DNA from: a virus
Taxonomy: Duplodnaviria; Heunggongvirae; Uroviricota; Caudoviricetes
Direction: 5' to 3' (one strand)
Virus record (IMG/VR): IMGVR_UViG_2531839662_000032
DNA length: 31,502 bases
Both the position numbers and the translations under genes were made by a program. The notes below the pieces were generated by a model. That model saw nothing but the letters and a program-made list of their open reading frames with translations, was not told where the DNA came from and ran no database searches. This document shows positions 40-31,502 of this stretch, in pieces; the first letter of the stretch is position 1; each line of letters begins with the position of its first letter.

Positions 40-402
40 GGGGCTGATTCTGGATTCGACGGGATTTGCGAAACCCAAGGTGCATGCCGAGGGGCGGTTG
101 GCCTCGTAAAAAGCCGCAAAAAATAGTCGCAAACGACGAAAACTACGCTTTAGCAGCTTAATAACCTGCTTAGAGCCCTCTCTCCCTAGCCTCCGCTCTT
201 AGGACGGGGATCAAGAGAGGTCAAACCCAAAAGAGATCGCGTGGAAGCCCTGCCTGGGGTTGAAGCGTTAAAACTTAATCAGGCTAGTTTGTTAGTGGCG
301 TGTCCGTCCGCAGCTGGCAAGCGAATGTAAAGACTGACTAAGCATGTAGTACCGAGGATGTAGGAATTTCGGACGCGGGTTCAACTCCCGCCAGCTCCAC
401 CA
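40..402 (+). ncRNA. ssrA: tmRNA (SsrA), complete, about 363 nt
   Basis: Begins GGGGCTGATTCTGGATTCGAC and ends with tRNA-like T-arm/acceptor GGTTCAACTCCCGCCAGCTCCACCA (CCA at 400-402). Internal tag reading frame at 129-162 (GCAAACGACGAAAACTACGCTTTAGCAGCTTAA) encodes ANDENYALAA-stop. Confidence 0.95.
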
Positions 403-518
403 ATCATGATTGGACGGTGTAAGGACAACACCAACAAAAACAGGAAGTTAGCAGTCTCAGCAGGACACCGACCAGACGGTGAGGAGACAAAAAAGGATAC
501 GCAAAGGAGCCGCGGCTC
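373..518. repeat. Direct repeat copy 1 (ssrA 3' end plus about 115 bp trailer); putative prophage attachment site next to intact ssrA
   Basis: Near-identical to 21412-21556 (a handful of substitutions and a 1-nt indel, CCAGCTCCACCA versus CCAGCCCACCA). Homology stops abruptly at 518/21556. Confidence 0.7.
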
Positions 519-532
519 TCGAGTGACACAAA

Positions 533-560
533 AGCCCGCTTATGCGGGCTTTTTGTTTTT
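533..560 (+). terminator. Rho-independent terminator-like hairpin
   Basis: AGCCCGC-TTAT-GCGGGCT stem-loop followed by TTTTGTTTTT. Confidence 0.55.
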
Positions 561-636
561 CCCTTAAGTTCCTAGCCGCTTATCTATAACTATGGAAAAA
601 TGTTAACCCTGACTGTATGTTAACAAAGGGATGTAT

Positions 637-1845
637 ATGTCGGTTTTTCATAACTGGCTGCTTGATATCGCAAGCGGGAATTACTTTATCTACATCAAAC
701 GCCTTTCTGCAAACGACACAGGCGCAACAGGTGGCCATCAGGTCGGACTTTATATCCCCTCAAATATCGTTGAAAAGCTTTTTCCATCTATCAATCATAC
801 TCGCGAACTGAACCCTTCAGTCTTCCTTACTGCGCATGTATCATCCCATGATTGCCCTGATACCCAAGCACGCGCAATTTATTACAACAACCGTTATTTT
901 GGTAAGACCCGAAACGAAAAAAGAATTACGCGCTGGGGGAGAGGAAGTCCATTACAGAACCCTGAAAATACAGGAGCCCTCACAATTCTTGCTTTCAGGT
1001 TAAACGAACAGAACACTGACTGTTCCGAGGTAGATATATGGGTCTGCGTCAATCCCGATGAAGAGGATATCATCGAGTCTGCTATTGGCGAAATCATACC
1101 TGGAACCCTAATTTCCGGCCCTGCCGGACAAATTTTGGGCGGATTGTCTCTTCAGCAAACTCCAGTAAATCATAAATATGTTATTCCTGAAGACTGGAAG
1201 AAGCGTTTTCCTTCTGGAAACGAAATTATTCAATATGCTGCTGGCCATTATGCTAAAAACTCCAAGGATCCAGATGAGCAACTGATTGACCGTCGGCGTG
1301 TCGAGTATGATATTTTTCTACTCGTCGAGGAATTACATGTTCTTGATATTATTAAGAAAGGATTCGATTCTGTAGATGAGTTTATTGCATTAGCCAACTC
1401 TGTCAGTAATCGACGTAAATCAAGGGCAGGCAAATCACTTGAACTTCACCTAGAGAAGCTTTTTATCGAGCACGGACTACGGCATTTCTCCACTCAGGCA
1501 GTTACTGAAGGTAATAAAAAACCAGATTTCCTGTTTCCTTCAGCAGAGGCATATCATAACGTTGAATTTCCTGTAGAAAACTTACGTATGCTGGCAGTAA
1601 AGACCACCTGCAAAGATCGCTGGCGTCAGATACTGAATGAAGCAGATAAAATCCATCAGGTACATTTATTTACACTGCAAGAAGGTGTTTCTTCAGCACA
1701 ATACCGAGAAATGAAAGATGCGGGTGTCAGACTCGTTGTACCATCAACTTTACATAAAAAATACCCAGAAGCAGTTAGAGAAGAATTAATAACGCTCGGA
1801 GCATTCATTACTGAGCTGATAGAGCTTTACGCTGAACTATCATAG
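637..1845 (+). CDS. ecoRIIR: Type II restriction endonuclease, EcoRII-like (CCWGG family)
   Basis: N-terminus MSVFHNWLL...YIKRLSANDTGATGGHQVGLYIP matches my recollection of the EcoRII effector domain. RBS AAGGG at 626-630 is 6 nt before ATG 637 (the track start at 631 lacks spacing). Convergent with an adjacent Dcm-like methylase. Confidence 0.85.
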   Translation: MSVFHNWLLDIASGNYFIYIKRLSANDTGATGGHQVGLYIPSNIVEKLFPSINHTRELNPSVFLTAHVSSHDCPDTQARAIYYNNRYFGKTRNEKRITRWGRGSPLQNPENTGALTILAFRLNEQNTDCSEVDIWVCVNPDEEDIIESAIGEIIPGTLISGPAGQILGGLSLQQTPVNHKYVIPEDWKKRFPSGNEIIQYAAGHYAKNSKDPDEQLIDRRRVEYDIFLLVEELHVLDIIKKGFDSVDEFIALANSVSNRRKSRAGKSLELHLEKLFIEHGLRHFSTQAVTEGNKKPDFLFPSAEAYHNVEFPVENLRMLAVKTTCKDRWRQILNEADKIHQVHLFTLQEGVSSAQYREMKDAGVRLVVPSTLHKKYPEAVREELITLGAFITELIELYAELS

Positions 1846-1850
1846 GCTGA

Positions 1851-1873
1851 CTCCCGGCTTAAAAGGCCGGGAG
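1851..1873. terminator. Bidirectional hairpin between convergent R and M genes
   Basis: CTCCCGGC-loop-GCCGGGAG inverted repeat sits in the 34-bp gap between the stop at 1845 (+) and the stop at 1880 (-). Confidence 0.5.
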
Positions 1874-1879
1874 ATGTTC

Positions 1880-3313
1880 TCAAGGCTGCCCAGTCTTACC
1901 AGCATCAGCAGAAACAGCTTTGAGGATATAGGGTTCCAGAAGTCTGGCAACAGCTTCAAATACTGGCACCACAACTGAGTTACCGAACTGCCGATATGAC
2001 TGAGTATCTGAAACCGGAATACGGAATGGTTTCCCTCCAGGTTTTTCAAATCCCATAAGGCGTGCGCACTCTCGGGGAGTCAGCCTGCGTGGTCGACGAG
2101 CCTGATTACTCTCATTCATAAAGTCAGCCTCTCCCGTTGCCATATCCCAACCACGATCAATAAGAATTTCTGATCCGTCTTTGTGATATCTGGCAGAAAG
2201 TGTGCGTGCAATGCTTTCCTTATTCTCAGGATTGACCAACCCAAAGCCAAAACCATTCCCCTTGGCTGCATGCTTTTTGGCGTAGTTATAAAGGTACTCC
2301 CATAGTTTTGGCGTAAGTATATATTTACTGTCGACTACAGGCTCCAGCAATTCACCAAATGATGGGCGGTGTTCCGGATAAAAACGACTGATATCACGCA
2401 AGGTAAACCCCTTGTGAATATTCAGATCTCGTCTAAATCCGACCAGAACAATGCGTTCACGATGCTGAGGCAAAAAATGCTTCCCATCGATAATCTTTGG
2501 ATCGTTTTTTCCCATTTCTGCAGCATCGGCAACTTCGTAGCCCAGCTCGTCAAGGGTCTCCATAATGACTTTGAAAGTTTTACCCTTATCATGGCTCTTC
2601 AGATTTTTGACATTTTCCAGCACAAAAATTGCCGGTTTTTTTGCTCGTATAATACGTGCCACGTCAAAAAAAAGTGTTCCTTGTGCTTCACATTCAAAAC
2701 CATGCGCACGACCAAGTGAGTTTTTCTTACTAACACCAGCAAGGCTAAATGGCTGGCACGGGAACCCCGCAAGAAGCACATCATGATCCGGCACATGCTC
2801 ATCAATATATGCATAAGCATCCGTTTCCAATACATCGGTTTTATCACTCAGCGTGACTTCCCGAATATCGAGATTGAATTTATGCACCTGTTCATCGTTA
2901 AACCAGTTGGCCTTGTATGTACGCACAGCATCTTTATTCCATTCACTGGTAAAAACACACTGGCCTCCAATGGCCTCAAAACCTTTCCGTATCCCTCCAA
3001 TTCCAGCAAATAAGTCAATGAAGCGGAAAGCATATTCCGGATGGTTTGCAGGTGGTTCTGGTAGCATCTTACGCAGAAGAGACTCTTCTACTGAAGTCAA
3101 CGATTTTGGTAAACACTTGCCATTAATCCAGCGGTTAATGGTTTCACGGCTCCACTCATTTTTTCCGACTTTTCTCAGTAATTCAGCCACATACTTCTGA
3201 TCATAGATTTCCAGCACTTTCTCGATAAGCTTTTTATCATTTTCCTGTCGCAACTTTTCTTCCGCCTCGGCTTCCTTCAGCAGATGCTGTGCCAACACTT
3301 CAAATTCAGACAT
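1880..3313 (-). CDS. ecoRIIM: DNA cytosine-5 methyltransferase, M.EcoRII/Dcm-like
   Basis: C5-MTase motifs: [15 protein letters not shown] (motif I), [11 protein letters not shown] (catalytic PCQ), FVLENVKNL (ENV), QFGNSV near the C-terminus. Near-colinear with Dcm as I recall it. Start taken at the internal ATG at 3313 (MSEFEVLAQ...) preceded by GGAGG; the track's longer ORF to 3355 is a less likely start. Confidence 0.9.
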
Positions 3314-3674
3314 AATTCCTCCAAGGGGTCTAATGGGTGAAACTTTATCACTCATTCAACCCAGAAGGAAATGTTTTATCTGGATATTTAAACAGTGACT
3401 ACAACGTAATCTAGCACTGGTGATGCTTTGTTAGGCATAGAGAATCATTCTATATACGACTAATGACAGAAAAACAGCAGACAAGTAGTTTGTTCATAAA
3501 TTAACGCATACTATGTGTCTACGGTTTTCGAGACCGGTCCAATCATCAAACGAAACATAAAATTAGCTCACATTATGAGGAAAAGTATCTTTTTTGTACT
3601 ATGTAAATTCAAAGGCTTAGCCTCATTTCTCCGATGGTTTTCTCAACACTACTGGTTATGAGCCCTTGCAATGA

Positions 3675-5458
<1,784 letters not shown>

Positions 5459-18606: not shown

Positions 18607-18813
18607 ATGCTGAACCTCGATTGTGTTCCTATCTCAACTTATTGCAAAGAAACTGGCGAAACTCCTGAAGCAATAAACAAACGTGTACAGCGCGGTGTTT
18701 GGCGTGAAGGTGTTCAGGTTTTAAAGGTTGAAGGCGTTAAGGAGAGGTGGATTGATCTTAGTGAGGTTGCAAAATGGGCCAGACAAAACTGCTCAAACTA
18801 CCGCGCGGCGTAA
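18607..18813 (+). CDS. xis: Excisionase-like DNA-binding protein
   Basis: Small basic protein directly upstream of and overlapping the integrase start. GGAG RBS 6 nt before ATG 18607. Confidence 0.6.
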   Translation: MLNLDCVPISTYCKETGETPEAINKRVQRGVWREGVQVLKVEGVKERWIDLSEVAKWARQNCSNYRAA

Positions 18814-19943
18814 CAATCAGGAAACACCGCCAGGGCGAAACGATCAATATAACTTTCACCTACAAAGGTGTTAAATGTCGTGAGCCTCTTTCCAATCTGG
18901 AAGTAACACCAAAGAACATTAAATACGCCGAGCGCACACTCGGCGAAATTCATAATAAGATCGAAAGGGGAACATTCATTTATGCGGAATATTTTCCCCG
19001 TTCTGCTCGTTTGAAAATTTTTGGTAATGCTGCTGCAGGCAAAACGGTAAAAATGTACCTGGACGAATACCTTGAAATCTGCGAAACGAGAAAACTTTCA
19101 CCATCTACGATTGGTGGTTATAAAAAATGCCGTAGTGCGTTAGCCTCACTCCACATTTGCCCTGCAAGTGAACTAACACCAGCAATCCTGAAAGCGTGGA
19201 TTCAAAGCCAGAAAACGACCTTAAAAACAATTCGCAACCAGTTATCTTTCCTGCGGTCAGCACTTGATGAAGCCGTAACCGATGGGGTACTTCAAATTAA
19301 CCCCGTATCGTTGGTAACTGCTTCGCGCTACCAAAGTGATAAGTCAGAAGCAGAAAGCAGCTACGTGGTTGATCCGCTATCACCAGCAGAAGTTGATGCA
19401 TTACTAGCAGCAGCCGGAAACAAACAATGGGAGAATCTGTTCCGGTTCGCTATACATACAGGCCTGCGTAGTTCTGAATTATGTGCCCTTCGATGGCGTG
19501 ATATCGACTTTGTTGGAAAAACTGCCCATGTCCAGAGCGCAAGTGTTGTCGGTGTTATCAAAGGAACAAAGACAAAAGCCGGTACTCGTAAAGTTGAACT
19601 GACAGAAGATGCAATGTTGGCGCTGATAAATCAGAAGCCATTTACATTCATGAAGGATGCTACAGTCTTTGAAGATCCAAAGACCAATAAACCTTGGGCA
19701 AGTGCTGATGCAATTAGAAAAAAAGCATGGGTGCCAACATTGCGGAAAGCAGGTATTCGTTACAGAAACCCATATCAAACCAGACATACATTCGCCACCA
19801 GCCATATCAGCCGGGGAGCAAACCTGTTTTGGCTTGCGGTTCAAATGGGTCATAAAGGACCAGAGATGTTATTTAGACATTATGGCTCATACCTCAAAGA
19901 ATATGATGGAAATACATCTTTAAATAGAAAAAATAGATATTAA
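18774..19943 (+). CDS. int: Tyrosine recombinase / phage integrase (lambda-type)
   Basis: N-terminal arm-binding-type region (LPRGVTIRKHRQGETINITFTYKGVKCRE) and C-terminal catalytic region with ...TGLRSSELCALRW..., ...YQTRHTFAT..., ...GHKGPEMLFRHYGSY (R...HxxR...Y). GAGG RBS 7 nt upstream. Confidence 0.9.
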   Translation: MGQTKLLKLPRGVTIRKHRQGETINITFTYKGVKCREPLSNLEVTPKNIKYAERTLGEIHNKIERGTFIYAEYFPRSARLKIFGNAAAGKTVKMYLDEYLEICETRKLSPSTIGGYKKCRSALASLHICPASELTPAILKAWIQSQKTTLKTIRNQLSFLRSALDEAVTDGVLQINPVSLVTASRYQSDKSEAESSYVVDPLSPAEVDALLAAAGNKQWENLFRFAIHTGLRSSELCALRWRDIDFVGKTAHVQSASVVGVIKGTKTKAGTRKVELTEDAMLALINQKPFTFMKDATVFEDPKTNKPWASADAIRKKAWVPTLRKAGIRYRNPYQTRHTFATSHISRGANLFWLAVQMGHKGPEMLFRHYGSYLKEYDGNTSLNRKNRY

Positions 19944-19954
19944 TTTAGATAAAA

Positions 19955-19977
19955 ATGGCCTTTACAGGCCATTATTC
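19955..19977. terminator. Bidirectional hairpin between convergent int and the cargo operon
   Basis: AATGGCC-TTTACA-GGCCATT inverted repeat flanked by A/T runs. Confidence 0.45.
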
Positions 19978-29459: not shown

Positions 29460-30737
29460 ATGGCCGTCAATCTTACTGAAACAGCCATCCGAGCATTGAA
29501 AGCAAAAAAGACATCGTTCTATGTCTGGAGCAACAGCTCTCAACGTGGCACTGGACGACTTGGTGTCAAAGTTCAGTCTTCTGGCAGCAAGATTTTCTAT
29601 TTCCGCTATTACGTGGAAAAAGGGAAAAAAGAAAGATTCATTCAATTGGGTATATGGCCTGAGATGAAACTGGCCACAGCGAATGAACTGGCAAAAAAGT
29701 ATGGTGCCTGGCTCATTGAAGGAAAGGATCCCCAGGCAGAACTGGAACGACAACAGTTTGCAGAACAGCAGCGGATACAACTCCATCAATCACAGGGCTC
29801 ATTTGAAGCATTGATTCATGGTTATGTTAACAAAATGAAAATTGATAATAAGAGGACATGGCAGGATGTTCTGAAACGCCTTGAAAATGAATGCTATACA
29901 GTGATCCCCCGTGAAACTAAAGCTAAAGATGTGACTTCCGGACAGATTAAACATATCCTGGCCGGGATCATTCAGCGTGGTGCTGTGGTTCACTCTAACC
30001 GGATCCGTTCTTACCTGATGGCTGCATTTAACTATGGACTGAAAGCAGATAACGATCCGATGAACACAAGTGCAGGGATTACTTTTGGGCTGGAGGCAAA
30101 TCCGGTGTCAGTGATACCGAAACAGTCATCTGCTGAAAAAGTCGGTGATACCTGGCTGACACTTGAAGAGTTGCGTTTTCTAATGGAACATTTTGCTGAA
30201 GCAACCAACGTTGGATTATTGATGCAACATTTGATCCGATTCTGTATCTATACCGGAGGGCAACGTCCCTTCGAAATGATCGCCAGTCAGTGGTGTGATG
30301 TTGATTTTCAACAAAAAACGCTGCTGGTGACTGCTGATGTCTCTAAAAATAAACGAGAGCATTTGATACCGTTGACTGAATCAGCATTACAGGAATTATC
30401 CTGTGTGCAGGAGTTAACAAAAGAAAAATCCAGCCCTTACATTTTTCCACTTTCGACTAATGGTAAGCGTCCGGTTCGTACGGACAGTCTGGCTCGCGCT
30501 ATCATGTATTTCCGGGCTTTTAATCCTGACTTTAAAATTTTTACAGCACGTGACTTACGTCGGACCTGTAAAACGTTAATGGGAGAAGCTGGGATCAGTA
30601 AGGAAATCCGCGATCGTATTCAAAATCATGCGTTGAACGATGTCAGTTCAAAACATTATGATCGATACGATTATTTGCCAGAAAAACGCAGAGCACTTGA
30701 GATCTGGGAGGACCGGGTTAATAACTATCAACAGTAA
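29460..30737 (+). CDS. P4-type tyrosine integrase
   Basis: N-terminal arm-binding domain LTETAIRALKAKKTSFYVWSNSSQRGTGRLGVKVQSSGSKIFYFRY is P4-integrase-like; C-terminal catalytic region with ...TARDLRRT... and ...HYDRYDY. GAGG RBS 4 nt upstream. Sits about 200 bp from the tRNA-Ile fragment. Confidence 0.85.
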   Translation: MAVNLTETAIRALKAKKTSFYVWSNSSQRGTGRLGVKVQSSGSKIFYFRYYVEKGKKERFIQLGIWPEMKLATANELAKKYGAWLIEGKDPQAELERQQFAEQQRIQLHQSQGSFEALIHGYVNKMKIDNKRTWQDVLKRLENECYTVIPRETKAKDVTSGQIKHILAGIIQRGAVVHSNRIRSYLMAAFNYGLKADNDPMNTSAGITFGLEANPVSVIPKQSSAEKVGDTWLTLEELRFLMEHFAEATNVGLLMQHLIRFCIYTGGQRPFEMIASQWCDVDFQQKTLLVTADVSKNKREHLIPLTESALQELSCVQELTKEKSSPYIFPLSTNGKRPVRTDSLARAIMYFRAFNPDFKIFTARDLRRTCKTLMGEAGISKEIRDRIQNHALNDVSSKHYDRYDYLPEKRRALEIWEDRVNNYQQ

Positions 30738-30905
30738 ACAGGCAATAATGTTGTCAATCTGTTTGGCAGAAGGTGAGGGAGTTCCTGGTCGCTGTACGAA
30801 TTGTGTACAATCGATGGGTATTGTTGATGCACTTGGTTCTTGTATTGTTTACTATAATTATTGAGGTAAATTTTCGTGCCGGTATTACTCAGAGGGGATT
30901 CAAAA

Positions 30906-31502
30906 ATGGCTGTAATTCCAATGTCTTACTCCCCTGCTACTGTAGCTCGTCGTTTTTCGATACTGGATGGAGTAACTATTCAGGGCGTGCTTTACCAGAT
31001 CATCTGGGATCCAAAGACTCCGTTTGCTGCGGTAATCGAAGCTGCACCTTCTGTTATTGATGGTGATGTTCGCCATAAGGTTGTTGCCACTCTGGAGCTT
31101 CAGCGTCGTCCCCGGCTTGAAGGCGTGTTTGTCCAGAAATTCTGGGAAGAACAGGATGTTGCTCAGATTGAAGGGATTGTTGTCGATGGCGCTGTACGTG
31201 ATGTTGGTCTTGCAACGTTTGTTTATGAAACGATAGTCACAAAAGCGGGCGTTGTACTATTAAGTGATAACGAGCAATATGAAGGAGGTAAAGCTCTCTG
31301 GCAGCATATTGCGCGTCGTTCAACGAATCTGAAGGTGTTTATTTTAGATACTGATTCCGCACGGTATTACCCGTTTGATGGCGAACGGATCAGTTATGAC
31401 GGGAAAAGCATCCCGGAATCAGAAATCTGGAGTGAACATCCTGAGCGAAACAGACACGCTGTCGTTCTTGTGGCTGAATCTGTTAATGGTAAAGCCGCAT
31501 AA
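30906..31502 (+). CDS. Hypothetical protein (198 aa), first cargo gene after the P4-type integrase
   Basis: AGAGGGG RBS 8 nt upstream of ATG 30906. No motif recognised. Stop TAA coincides with the window end. Confidence 0.5.
   Translation: MAVIPMSYSPATVARRFSILDGVTIQGVLYQIIWDPKTPFAAVIEAAPSVIDGDVRHKVVATLELQRRPRLEGVFVQKFWEEQDVAQIEGIVVDGAVRDVGLATFVYETIVTKAGVVLLSDNEQYEGGKALWQHIARRSTNLKVFILDTDSARYYPFDGERISYDGKSIPESEIWSEHPERNRHAVVLVAESVNGKAA

Follow-up and report, generated by a model that had tools for sequence, protein, structure and literature searches.

We analysed a stretch of DNA of 31,502 nucleotides (nt; hereafter the window), filed as the virus record IMGVR_UViG_2531839662_000032 of IMG/VR, near one end of which lies a restriction–modification (R-M) gene pair of the EcoRII type, made up of an endonuclease gene (R) and a cytosine methyltransferase gene (M). 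Very probably, positions 571-3397 are a complete EcoRII-family type IIE module, which is carried as prophage cargo with both proteins intact and with conserved control of expression. Upstream of the M promoter we found a LexA (SOS) box that is conserved among relatives and follows the LexA type of the host. We lean towards the view that this box adds SOS control to the module, so that DNA damage would raise the level of M. The two genes, with the convergent layout used throughout the text, are:

637-1845, plus strand: R gene, EcoRII-type type IIE endonuclease, 402 amino acids (404 if the start is ATG 631)
1880-3313, minus strand: M gene, M.EcoRII/Dcm-type C5 cytosine methyltransferase with an N-terminal helix-turn-helix (HTH) repressor domain, 477 amino acids

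The control region of M

The control region of M is found at 3326-3397, upstream of the gene and beyond the coordinates covered by the initial annotation of this DNA. It contains three elements:

3378-3397, minus strand: LexA (SOS) box CACTGTTTAAATATCCAGAT, with CTG-N10-CAG at 3380-3395, 9 nt upstream of the predicted -35
3342-3370, minus strand: predicted M promoter, with -35 TTCCTT (3370-3365), a 17-bp spacer and the extended -10 TGaTAAAGT (3350-3342)
3326-3362, minus strand: long, imperfect palindrome, GGGTTGAATGAGTGATA-aag-TTTCACCCATTAGACCC, that overlaps both the -10 and the predicted start of transcription

Read along the M strand, the order is thus CACTGTTTAAATATCCAGAT, 9 nt, TTCCTT, a 17-nt spacer containing CTGGGT, TGaTAAAGT, the Shine-Dalgarno (SD) sequence GGAGG and the ATG, with transcription predicted to start near 3335. 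We aligned the M-upstream region of 38 distinct sequences (alignment A6). The invariant columns took in the TT of the -35, the TG and TAnnnT of the extended -10 and the arms of the palindrome, GGGTnnAATGAGTGA...TCACnCATTnnACCC (3362-3326); CTGGGT and AGTGATA were likewise invariant. In the Marinomonas locus L054 the palindrome arms are perfect over 16 bp. An alternative M open reading frame (ORF) of 491 amino acids, starting at 3355, was considered and rejected: its upstream ATG is in frame in most homologues, and the frame is broken by a frameshift in L005. Because of this break, we take the conservation upstream of M to be regulatory.

Autorepression of ecoRIIM has been published (PMC12707154), and the site expected for repression by the HTH domain of M is where the palindrome overlaps the -10 and the start (PMC12707154, PMC2760811). 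The palindrome at 3326-3362 is a candidate operator for such autorepression by M's own HTH domain. One locus, L028 from Pantoea sp. R13S299, has a tandem expansion of more than 100 nt upstream of M, built of the 9-mer CCCATAAGA; this unit derives from the right arm of the M operator, and the expansion separates the M start from the LexA box, which there lies at -174.

The LexA box was scored with a weight matrix made from E. coli LexA operators, whose training sites ranged from 13.0 to 27.0 bits. At 18.6 bits, CACTGTTTAAATATCCAGAT was the top site of the 31.5-kb window (the next scored 10.3), and this value was reached in only 2 of 300 random windows. In the 33 kb of adjoining chromosome (L001) the four best sites were the M box and three sites upstream of recN (24.8, 17.4 and 15.0 bits), which we take to be the recN LexA operators; the M box came second, above two of these three.

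In the 38 aligned sequences the CTG and CA of the box never change and its final G hardly does; the inner positions vary. In every enterobacterial relative the box precedes the M start by 80-93 nt, and nearly every gammaproteobacterial locus has it as its best LexA site; the gamma-type box also occurs in relatives from Pseudomonas, Halioglobus, Pseudohongiella, Saccharospirillum, Marinomonas and Alteromonas. It forms the outer end of the conserved R-M module, beyond which the sequences of relatives are unrelated. Farther relatives come nearer to the LexA consensus, which is of the 20-bp TACTG(TA)5CAGTA type (PMC9578287); AACTGTATATTTATACAGTT, for example, reaches 27.2 bits. Alphaproteobacterial relatives have GAAC-N7-GAAC or GTTC-N7-GTTC at the equivalent position in five of five loci, and eight of the nine hits to this motif fell upstream of M, the background being 0.025 per kb. 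This is the LexA motif of Alphaproteobacteria (PMC3091678, PMC9578287, PMC12907096). Finally, box and operator are separable, because two loci, L062 and L069, keep the palindromic operator and have no LexA box. This host-matched, conserved and separable pattern argues that LexA, not M, would read the box.

We considered that CTG-N10-CAG might instead be part of M's operator, or the site of some other factor, its likeness to an SOS box being coincidental. M.EcoRII is known to bind its own promoter region (PMC12707154), the box stands upstream of the -35 and not over it, and in the close clade its right half-site CCAG forms, with a downstream TCTGG, the arrangement CCAGA-N13-TCTGG, which resembles half CCWGG sites. 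We had tried CCAGA-N13-TCTGG itself as the M operator, and gave it up in favour of the longer palindrome together with the LexA reading. Yet the conservation is that of a LexA site, with CTG and CAG fixed, the fourth base T, G or A, and an AT-rich centre. The drift of farther relatives towards the LexA consensus, and the loci with an operator and no box, also count against a part of M's operator. Moreover, the Alphaproteobacteria retain a similar downstream operator (GAGTCAAAT...) but have the upstream element switched to the alpha LexA motif, and the dcm gene of E. coli K-12 has neither operator nor box. We therefore consider a coincidental resemblance unlikely.

Several points weigh against SOS control of M by the LexA box. 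Four gammaproteobacterial loci (L051, L056, L062 and L069) are without it. The matrix had been trained on two of the three recN sites, which leaves one site as training-independent support. A gap of 9 nt (6-10 nt in relatives) separates the box from the predicted -35, and the box thus falls where UP elements lie, at about -43 to -62 from the predicted start; as it does not overlap the core promoter, repression by LexA is not guaranteed. LexA repression of M also looks counter-intuitive for the establishment of the module in a new host. For the module as a whole, the activity and CCWGG specificity of the two proteins are predicted from homology (86% for R, 91% for M), and the promoters are predictions. 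We found no report of LexA or SOS control of EcoRII in the accessible literature, older non-open literature being outside its scope. We give even chances to the broader proposal that EcoRII-family modules, on prophages and plasmids and in Gamma- and Alphaproteobacteria, place a host-type LexA operator before the M promoter and would produce damage-induced M. SOS-inducible M is, in this sense, plausible as a feature of the whole EcoRII family.

The R leader

The initial annotation had drawn attention to two copies of ATGTTAAC, 10 bp apart just before R, as possible regulatory sites. The R leader contains:

593-601, plus strand: TGgAAAAAT, extended -10-like, candidate R promoter and the sole invariant block in the leader
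600-607, plus strand: ATGTTAAC copy 1, overlapping the end of the -10-like hexamer, with 603-607 not conserved
617-624, plus strand: ATGTTAAC copy 2, in the predicted 5' untranslated region, where homologues have AGGGyAAC

The two copies are present, at 600-607 and 617-624, with a gap of 9 bp rather than 10 (period 17); a third copy is found at 29824. Though real, the repeat does not stand out statistically. The window has 42 seed positions at which an 8-mer recurs within about 30 nt, corresponding to about 20 separate repeats (random sequence of the same composition gives about 12 seed positions), and for the 67-bp leader alone the probability of such a repeat is about 0.013. We compared 22 distinct leaders, and the repeat was absent from all 21 others. 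Homologues read ATGGyrr at copy 1 and AGGGyAAC at copy 2; even the nearest relative (L002) has ATGCTAAC at copy 2, and positions 603-607 and 618-621 are the most variable of the leader. Judged from this comparison, the repeat is a lineage-specific coincidence and not a conserved control site, and a regulatory role for it is not supported.

An operator made of the two copies and controlling R, bound for example by M or by a host factor recognizing GTTAAC, would have in its favour that a span of 25 nt just before R has two exact copies of an 8-mer, with the low leader probability given above, and that a longer form, ATGTTAACC, is also found 41 nt upstream of K-12 dcm. Against it stand the absence of the repeat from the other leaders, the variability of its positions, the comparable local 8-mer repeats elsewhere in the window, the lack of any conserved RNA pair in the leader (see below) and the report that R of EcoRII is not regulated by M (PMC12707154). 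We regard such an operator as very improbable, the homologue comparison having largely refuted it already. As to the K-12 match, ATGTTAACC consists of copy 1 plus the next base of the window and lies at about 1238-1246 of the K-12 locus (L086), before the start of dcm; it is probably a coincidence.

What is conserved in the R leader is the -10-like block: all 22 leaders share T593, G594, A596, A599, A600 and T601, and the conserved TGnAAAAAT takes in only the first two bases (A, T) of copy 1. A second conserved block, CTrGCnG (572-578), stands where a -35 would be expected. The conservation of TGgAAAAAT suggests that it may act as the R promoter, for which transcription is predicted to start near 608. 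No convincing sigma-54 or canonical -35/-10 promoter for R was seen by eye, and none was given by a consensus scan of the leader.

Other candidates in the leader were rejected. An upstream mini-ORF (MEKC* here, MKKW* in relatives that have the stop) was discarded as a leader peptide, as it has no SD and its frame is stopped in some homologues and open into R in others; the upstream RTG is always 45 nt from the R start and in frame. A hairpin of two palindromic GTTAAC cores is not the minimum-free-energy fold, the leader folds no better than its shuffles (z -1.6 to +1.1), and RNAalifold found 0 conserved pairs in the 22 leaders. Pairing of AUGRAAAAA (592-600) with R codons 3-5 (GUUUUUCAU, 643-651) is possible at 89% of positions across the 22 homologues; it was set aside on the grounds of no covariation and of every shuffle doing as well. 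This pairing is an unexplained coincidence that might be linked to the reported translational control of EcoRII, for which a review mentions evidence, uncharacterised (PMC12707154). A weak LexA-like site, GACTGTATGTTAACAAAGGG at 611-630 (CTGT-N8-AAAG; 8.9 bits), overlaps copy 2 and the ribosome-binding region of R; as a half-site that scores lower than every known operator and occurs only in this lineage of E. coli, it was not retained.

The R and M proteins and their convergent spacer

The R ORF occupies 631-1845 on the plus strand and ends with TAG at 1843-1845. We favour ATG 637 as the start because the SD-like AAGGGA lies at 626-631 and the RefSeq start is also 637. R combines an EcoRII effector domain (EcoRII-N, PF09217, E=3.9e-61, residues 16-163) with an intact PD-(D/E)XK catalytic domain (EcoRII-C, PF09019, E=2.4e-71). 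It matches the crystal structure of EcoRII (PDB 1NA6) with E=1e-242 and is 86.3% identical to EcoRII over 401 aligned residues. The catalytic residues of EcoRII, E271, D299, K324 and E337 (1NA6 numbering), are identical in R together with their flanking motifs, as are the basic residues K92, R94 and R98 of the effector domain. R is thus a full-length ORF with no inactivating change in its catalytic residues on alignment to 1NA6. PADLOC matched R to REase_II (1.5e-233) and filed the pair as a type II endonuclease plus methyltransferase. With such identity, R would be expected to cut unmethylated CCWGG, using a second site as effector.

The M ORF runs from 3313 to 1880 on the minus strand, with its stop codon at 1880-1882 and the SD GGAGG (plus-strand 3318-3322) 4 nt ahead of the ATG. 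Its Pfam domains are DNA_methylase (PF00145, E=4.4e-78) and DNA_meth_N (PF18284, E=6.6e-27, residues 28-84). Motifs I, IV (PCQ), VI (ENV), VIII and X of C5 methyltransferases can be read in the translation, with GNSVVVP visible, and M is 91% identical to plasmid M.EcoRII-type proteins. By homology to M.EcoRII and from the known biology of EcoRII, M presumably methylates the inner C of CCWGG. The Pfam domains of both proteins, the 1NA6 match and the M motifs bear out the initial description of a complete EcoRII-type R-M pair, and the ribosome-binding sequences (AAGGGA before R, GGAGG before M) agree with its view that both genes look intact. As to a separate C-protein controller, the two-gene module has no third conserved ORF and does not belong to the C-controlled class.

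R (plus strand) and M (minus strand) converge on a spacer of exactly 34 bp (1846-1879), which contains, as had been described, a hairpin:

1851-1873, either strand: hairpin in the R/M spacer, CTCCCGGC(TT)/(AA)GCCGGGAG, -18.1 kcal/mol

More than 40 homologous loci have retained the hairpin, all tightly convergent relatives among them. In an alignment of 21 sequences 95% of cells were paired and three pairs were compensatory (nine cells), a covariation score reached by 0 of 500 shuffles; farther relatives have hairpins of unrelated sequence at the same position. The hairpin is clearly more than chance. There is no U-tract beside it on either strand. It probably serves as a bidirectional terminator, or as a 3'-end stabiliser, for the convergent transcripts. 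In the relatives L039-L046 (Rouxiella and Yersinia; R identity 58-68%) M and R are separated by about 470-560 bp, and the one locus checked has vsr in this gap (L043, 4249-4725; PF03852, E=1.6e-30). The module in the window lacks vsr.

Genomic setting and distribution

The DNA of the window is chromosomal, from E. coli, and shows 100% identity to strain UMNF18, among others. Its ssrA end and the element inserted there have the following features:

40-402, plus strand: ssrA gene (transfer-messenger RNA, tmRNA), found by ARAGORN with the tag ANDENYALAA and also present in the RefSeq annotation
373-558, plus strand: left copy of a 186-bp direct repeat of the attachment (att) type, comprising the ssrA 3' end and a terminator hairpin at 530-553
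3720-3935, plus strand: truncated PD-T4-3 (LEM-3-like GIY-YIG) gene, PF22945, a pseudogene in RefSeq, adjoining the R-M module
18774-19943, plus strand: integrase, at the right end of the element
19976-20665, minus strand: NADAR antitoxin (NADAR-DarT1, PF22397)
20669-21283, minus strand: DarT (PF14487)
21412-21595: right copy of the att-type direct repeat, found by repeat search and alignment

The two att repeats are 91% identical over 186 nt (blastn), and a terminator scan placed the hairpin at 530-553 within the left one. The attachment site of the prophage is the 3' end of ssrA. Between the repeats lie about 21 kb with the R-M pair, the truncated PD-T4-3 gene, phage genes, the integrase and the DarT-NADAR pair, the last placed between the integrase and the right repeat. 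RefSeq annotates in this element truncated tail-fibre, lom, J and head genes, replication and cI-like genes and many pseudogenes. The element is a decayed lambdoid prophage with defence or toxin–antitoxin cargo at both ends. The R-M pair is cargo at its ssrA-proximal end, within the 186-bp direct repeats and in the company of the integrase and phage structural genes; tmRNA, att repeats and RefSeq neighbours thus place the pair at the edge of a cryptic prophage adjoining ssrA, as had been proposed. One result speaks against this label: the module was found in none of the sequenced free phages (INPHARED phage genomes), and for this reason the label of phage cargo rests on the position of the module inside an att-bounded element.

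The module begins about 13 nt past the left att repeat and extends over about 2.8 kb (571-3397, both limits approximate). Homology to plasmid EcoRII systems spans the window from 585-623 to 3395-3396, at about 80% DNA identity; the left limit was extended to about 571 because conservation of the R leader reaches there. On the evidence of these limits of homology and leader conservation, the module is best taken as the mobile unit.

The truncated PD-T4-3 gene is fused in the window to a truncated tail-fibre gene, which suggests that a deletion took out pin and the end of the tail-fibre gene. A full-length copy of this anti-phage gene (257 amino acids; PADLOC PD-T4-3 match, E=2e-140) is found at 9315-10088 of L002. 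L002 (NZ_CP104634.1, pHNAH212872-4) is a 30-kb circular 'plasmid' record without a replicon type. Its match to the window begins at the att core (375), runs through R-M and reaches a full PD-T4-3 gene, after which comes pinE; the record may be an excised or mis-assembled ssrA island, not a plasmid.

Past the right att repeat there is a further island (21601-31502), which suggests tandem elements at ssrA:

21601-26310, minus strand: AIDA/pertactin-type autotransporter
27093-27884, minus strand: DUF5508
29460-30737, plus strand: second integrase, P4-type

We surveyed 5426 complete E. coli genomes. At least 80% of the locus was present in 377 of them and the junction of att and R in 261; the M allele was found at 99% identity or more in 263 records. 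By these figures, some 5-7% of complete E. coli genomes have such an EcoRII-type pair; UMNF18 and A0 34/86 are examples of carrier strains. Both R and M are already annotated in RefSeq.

Comparison with known systems

The closest known system is EcoRII of IncN-type plasmids (1NA6; M.EcoRII), which has the same two-domain R (86%), the same HTH-fused M (91%), the same convergent layout with a hairpin spacer of 33-34 bp, and the same M-upstream palindrome and CTG-N10-CAG box (the plasmid copies read ACCTGTTTAAATATCCAGAT, 17.5 bits). The module in the window differs in its DNA (about 80% identity), in being chromosomal at the end of an ssrA prophage and not on a conjugative plasmid, and in the lineage-specific substitutions of the R leader that create the ATGTTAAC repeat.

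M is also homologous to Dcm of the E. coli Dcm-Vsr system, at about 69% DNA identity over the catalytic part. In contrast to the module, dcm has no partner R and overlaps vsr. Among relatives of the module, those of Yersinia and Rouxiella have vsr between M and R. The region upstream of K-12 dcm, unlike that of M, has no palindromic operator and no LexA box (best site 5.7 bits).

The SsoII, Ecl18kI and MspI systems follow the same logic, as their methylases regulate through a palindromic operator at their own promoter (PMC2760811, PMC12707154). Those systems are divergent, however, and binding of M also activates R, whereas the genes in the window are convergent, with the R promoter separate and distant; R of EcoRII is reported to be unaffected by M (PMC12707154), unlike R of these systems. 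To our knowledge, a LexA box has not been described for SsoII, Ecl18kI or MspI.

Discussion

The following working of the module would fit its organization. M would methylate the inner C of CCWGG. R would be autoinhibited and cut only DNA with two or more unmethylated CCWGG sites, and would therefore restrict incoming DNA from dcm-minus sources. R would be read from the weak extended -10 promoter TGgAAAAAT just past the ssrA terminator, M from its own extended -10 promoter, and both convergent transcripts would end at the conserved hairpin. Once the genome is methylated, the palindrome would let the HTH domain of M repress the M promoter. DNA damage, including that from self-restriction or repair synthesis, would lead to cleavage of LexA and a rise in M. 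In relatives with vsr between M and R, vsr would be induced too if co-transcribed with M.

The interaction with chromosomal dcm/vsr raised in the initial annotation is a real issue, as a dcm homologue is present in the same genome (in two places of the record). The target of Dcm is presumably that of M, and Dcm would protect the genome from the R of the window; with dcm in the host, the genome would be protected independently of M. Dcm is known to suppress post-segregational killing by EcoRII (PMC3874152, PMC2993543). Such killing requires unprotected sites after loss of the module, and here the dcm homologue is on the same chromosome. Of the two roles suggested earlier, defence is probable and addiction unlikely: as the sites of M are also protected by Dcm, defence cargo against dcm-minus DNA is the more plausible role of the module (PMC3874152, PMC2993543).

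The module could also be a silent relic, with its genes unexpressed or R inactive, so that only a redundant methylase, or nothing, matters. In favour of this, the prophage around the module has decayed heavily and contains many pseudogenes, the PD-T4-3 gene beside it has been cut short, M is redundant with dcm, and R has only a weak predicted promoter. But neither ORF is shortened, every catalytic residue and motif is in place, and the regulatory elements are all intact. About 250 genomes carry the locus at 99% identity or more, the rows inspected showed no pseudogene flags, and a functionless R would be expected to decay like its neighbours. We thus hold a relic to be quite improbable and prefer the reading of a complete module with intact proteins.

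The gene pair itself is an ordinary, already annotated member of the EcoRII type. It matters little on its own, being routinely annotated and having its killing potential blunted by the host dcm. Of some interest is the stacking of defence genes at both ends of one decayed ssrA prophage, with R-M and the PD-T4-3 remnant at one end and DarT-NADAR at the other. Only the conserved, host-matched SOS box in the promoter of an EcoRII-family methylase goes beyond the routine.

In type I systems, restriction is alleviated after DNA damage through proteolysis of the restriction subunit. A functional LexA box would have an analogous outcome, with less self-restriction at unmodified sites made by damage or repair; the means would differ, being transcriptional induction of the methylase through LexA, and the analogy is one of function only. 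If SOS control of M is true, the old experiments on induction of the ecoRIIM promoter by 5-azacytidine would need re-reading, because 5-azacytidine also induces SOS. It would also tie a type II R-M system to the cell's response to DNA damage and provide a mechanism limiting autoimmunity, in which SOS feedback lifts protection while the chromosome is cut or re-synthesised: a transcriptional, type II counterpart of restriction alleviation.

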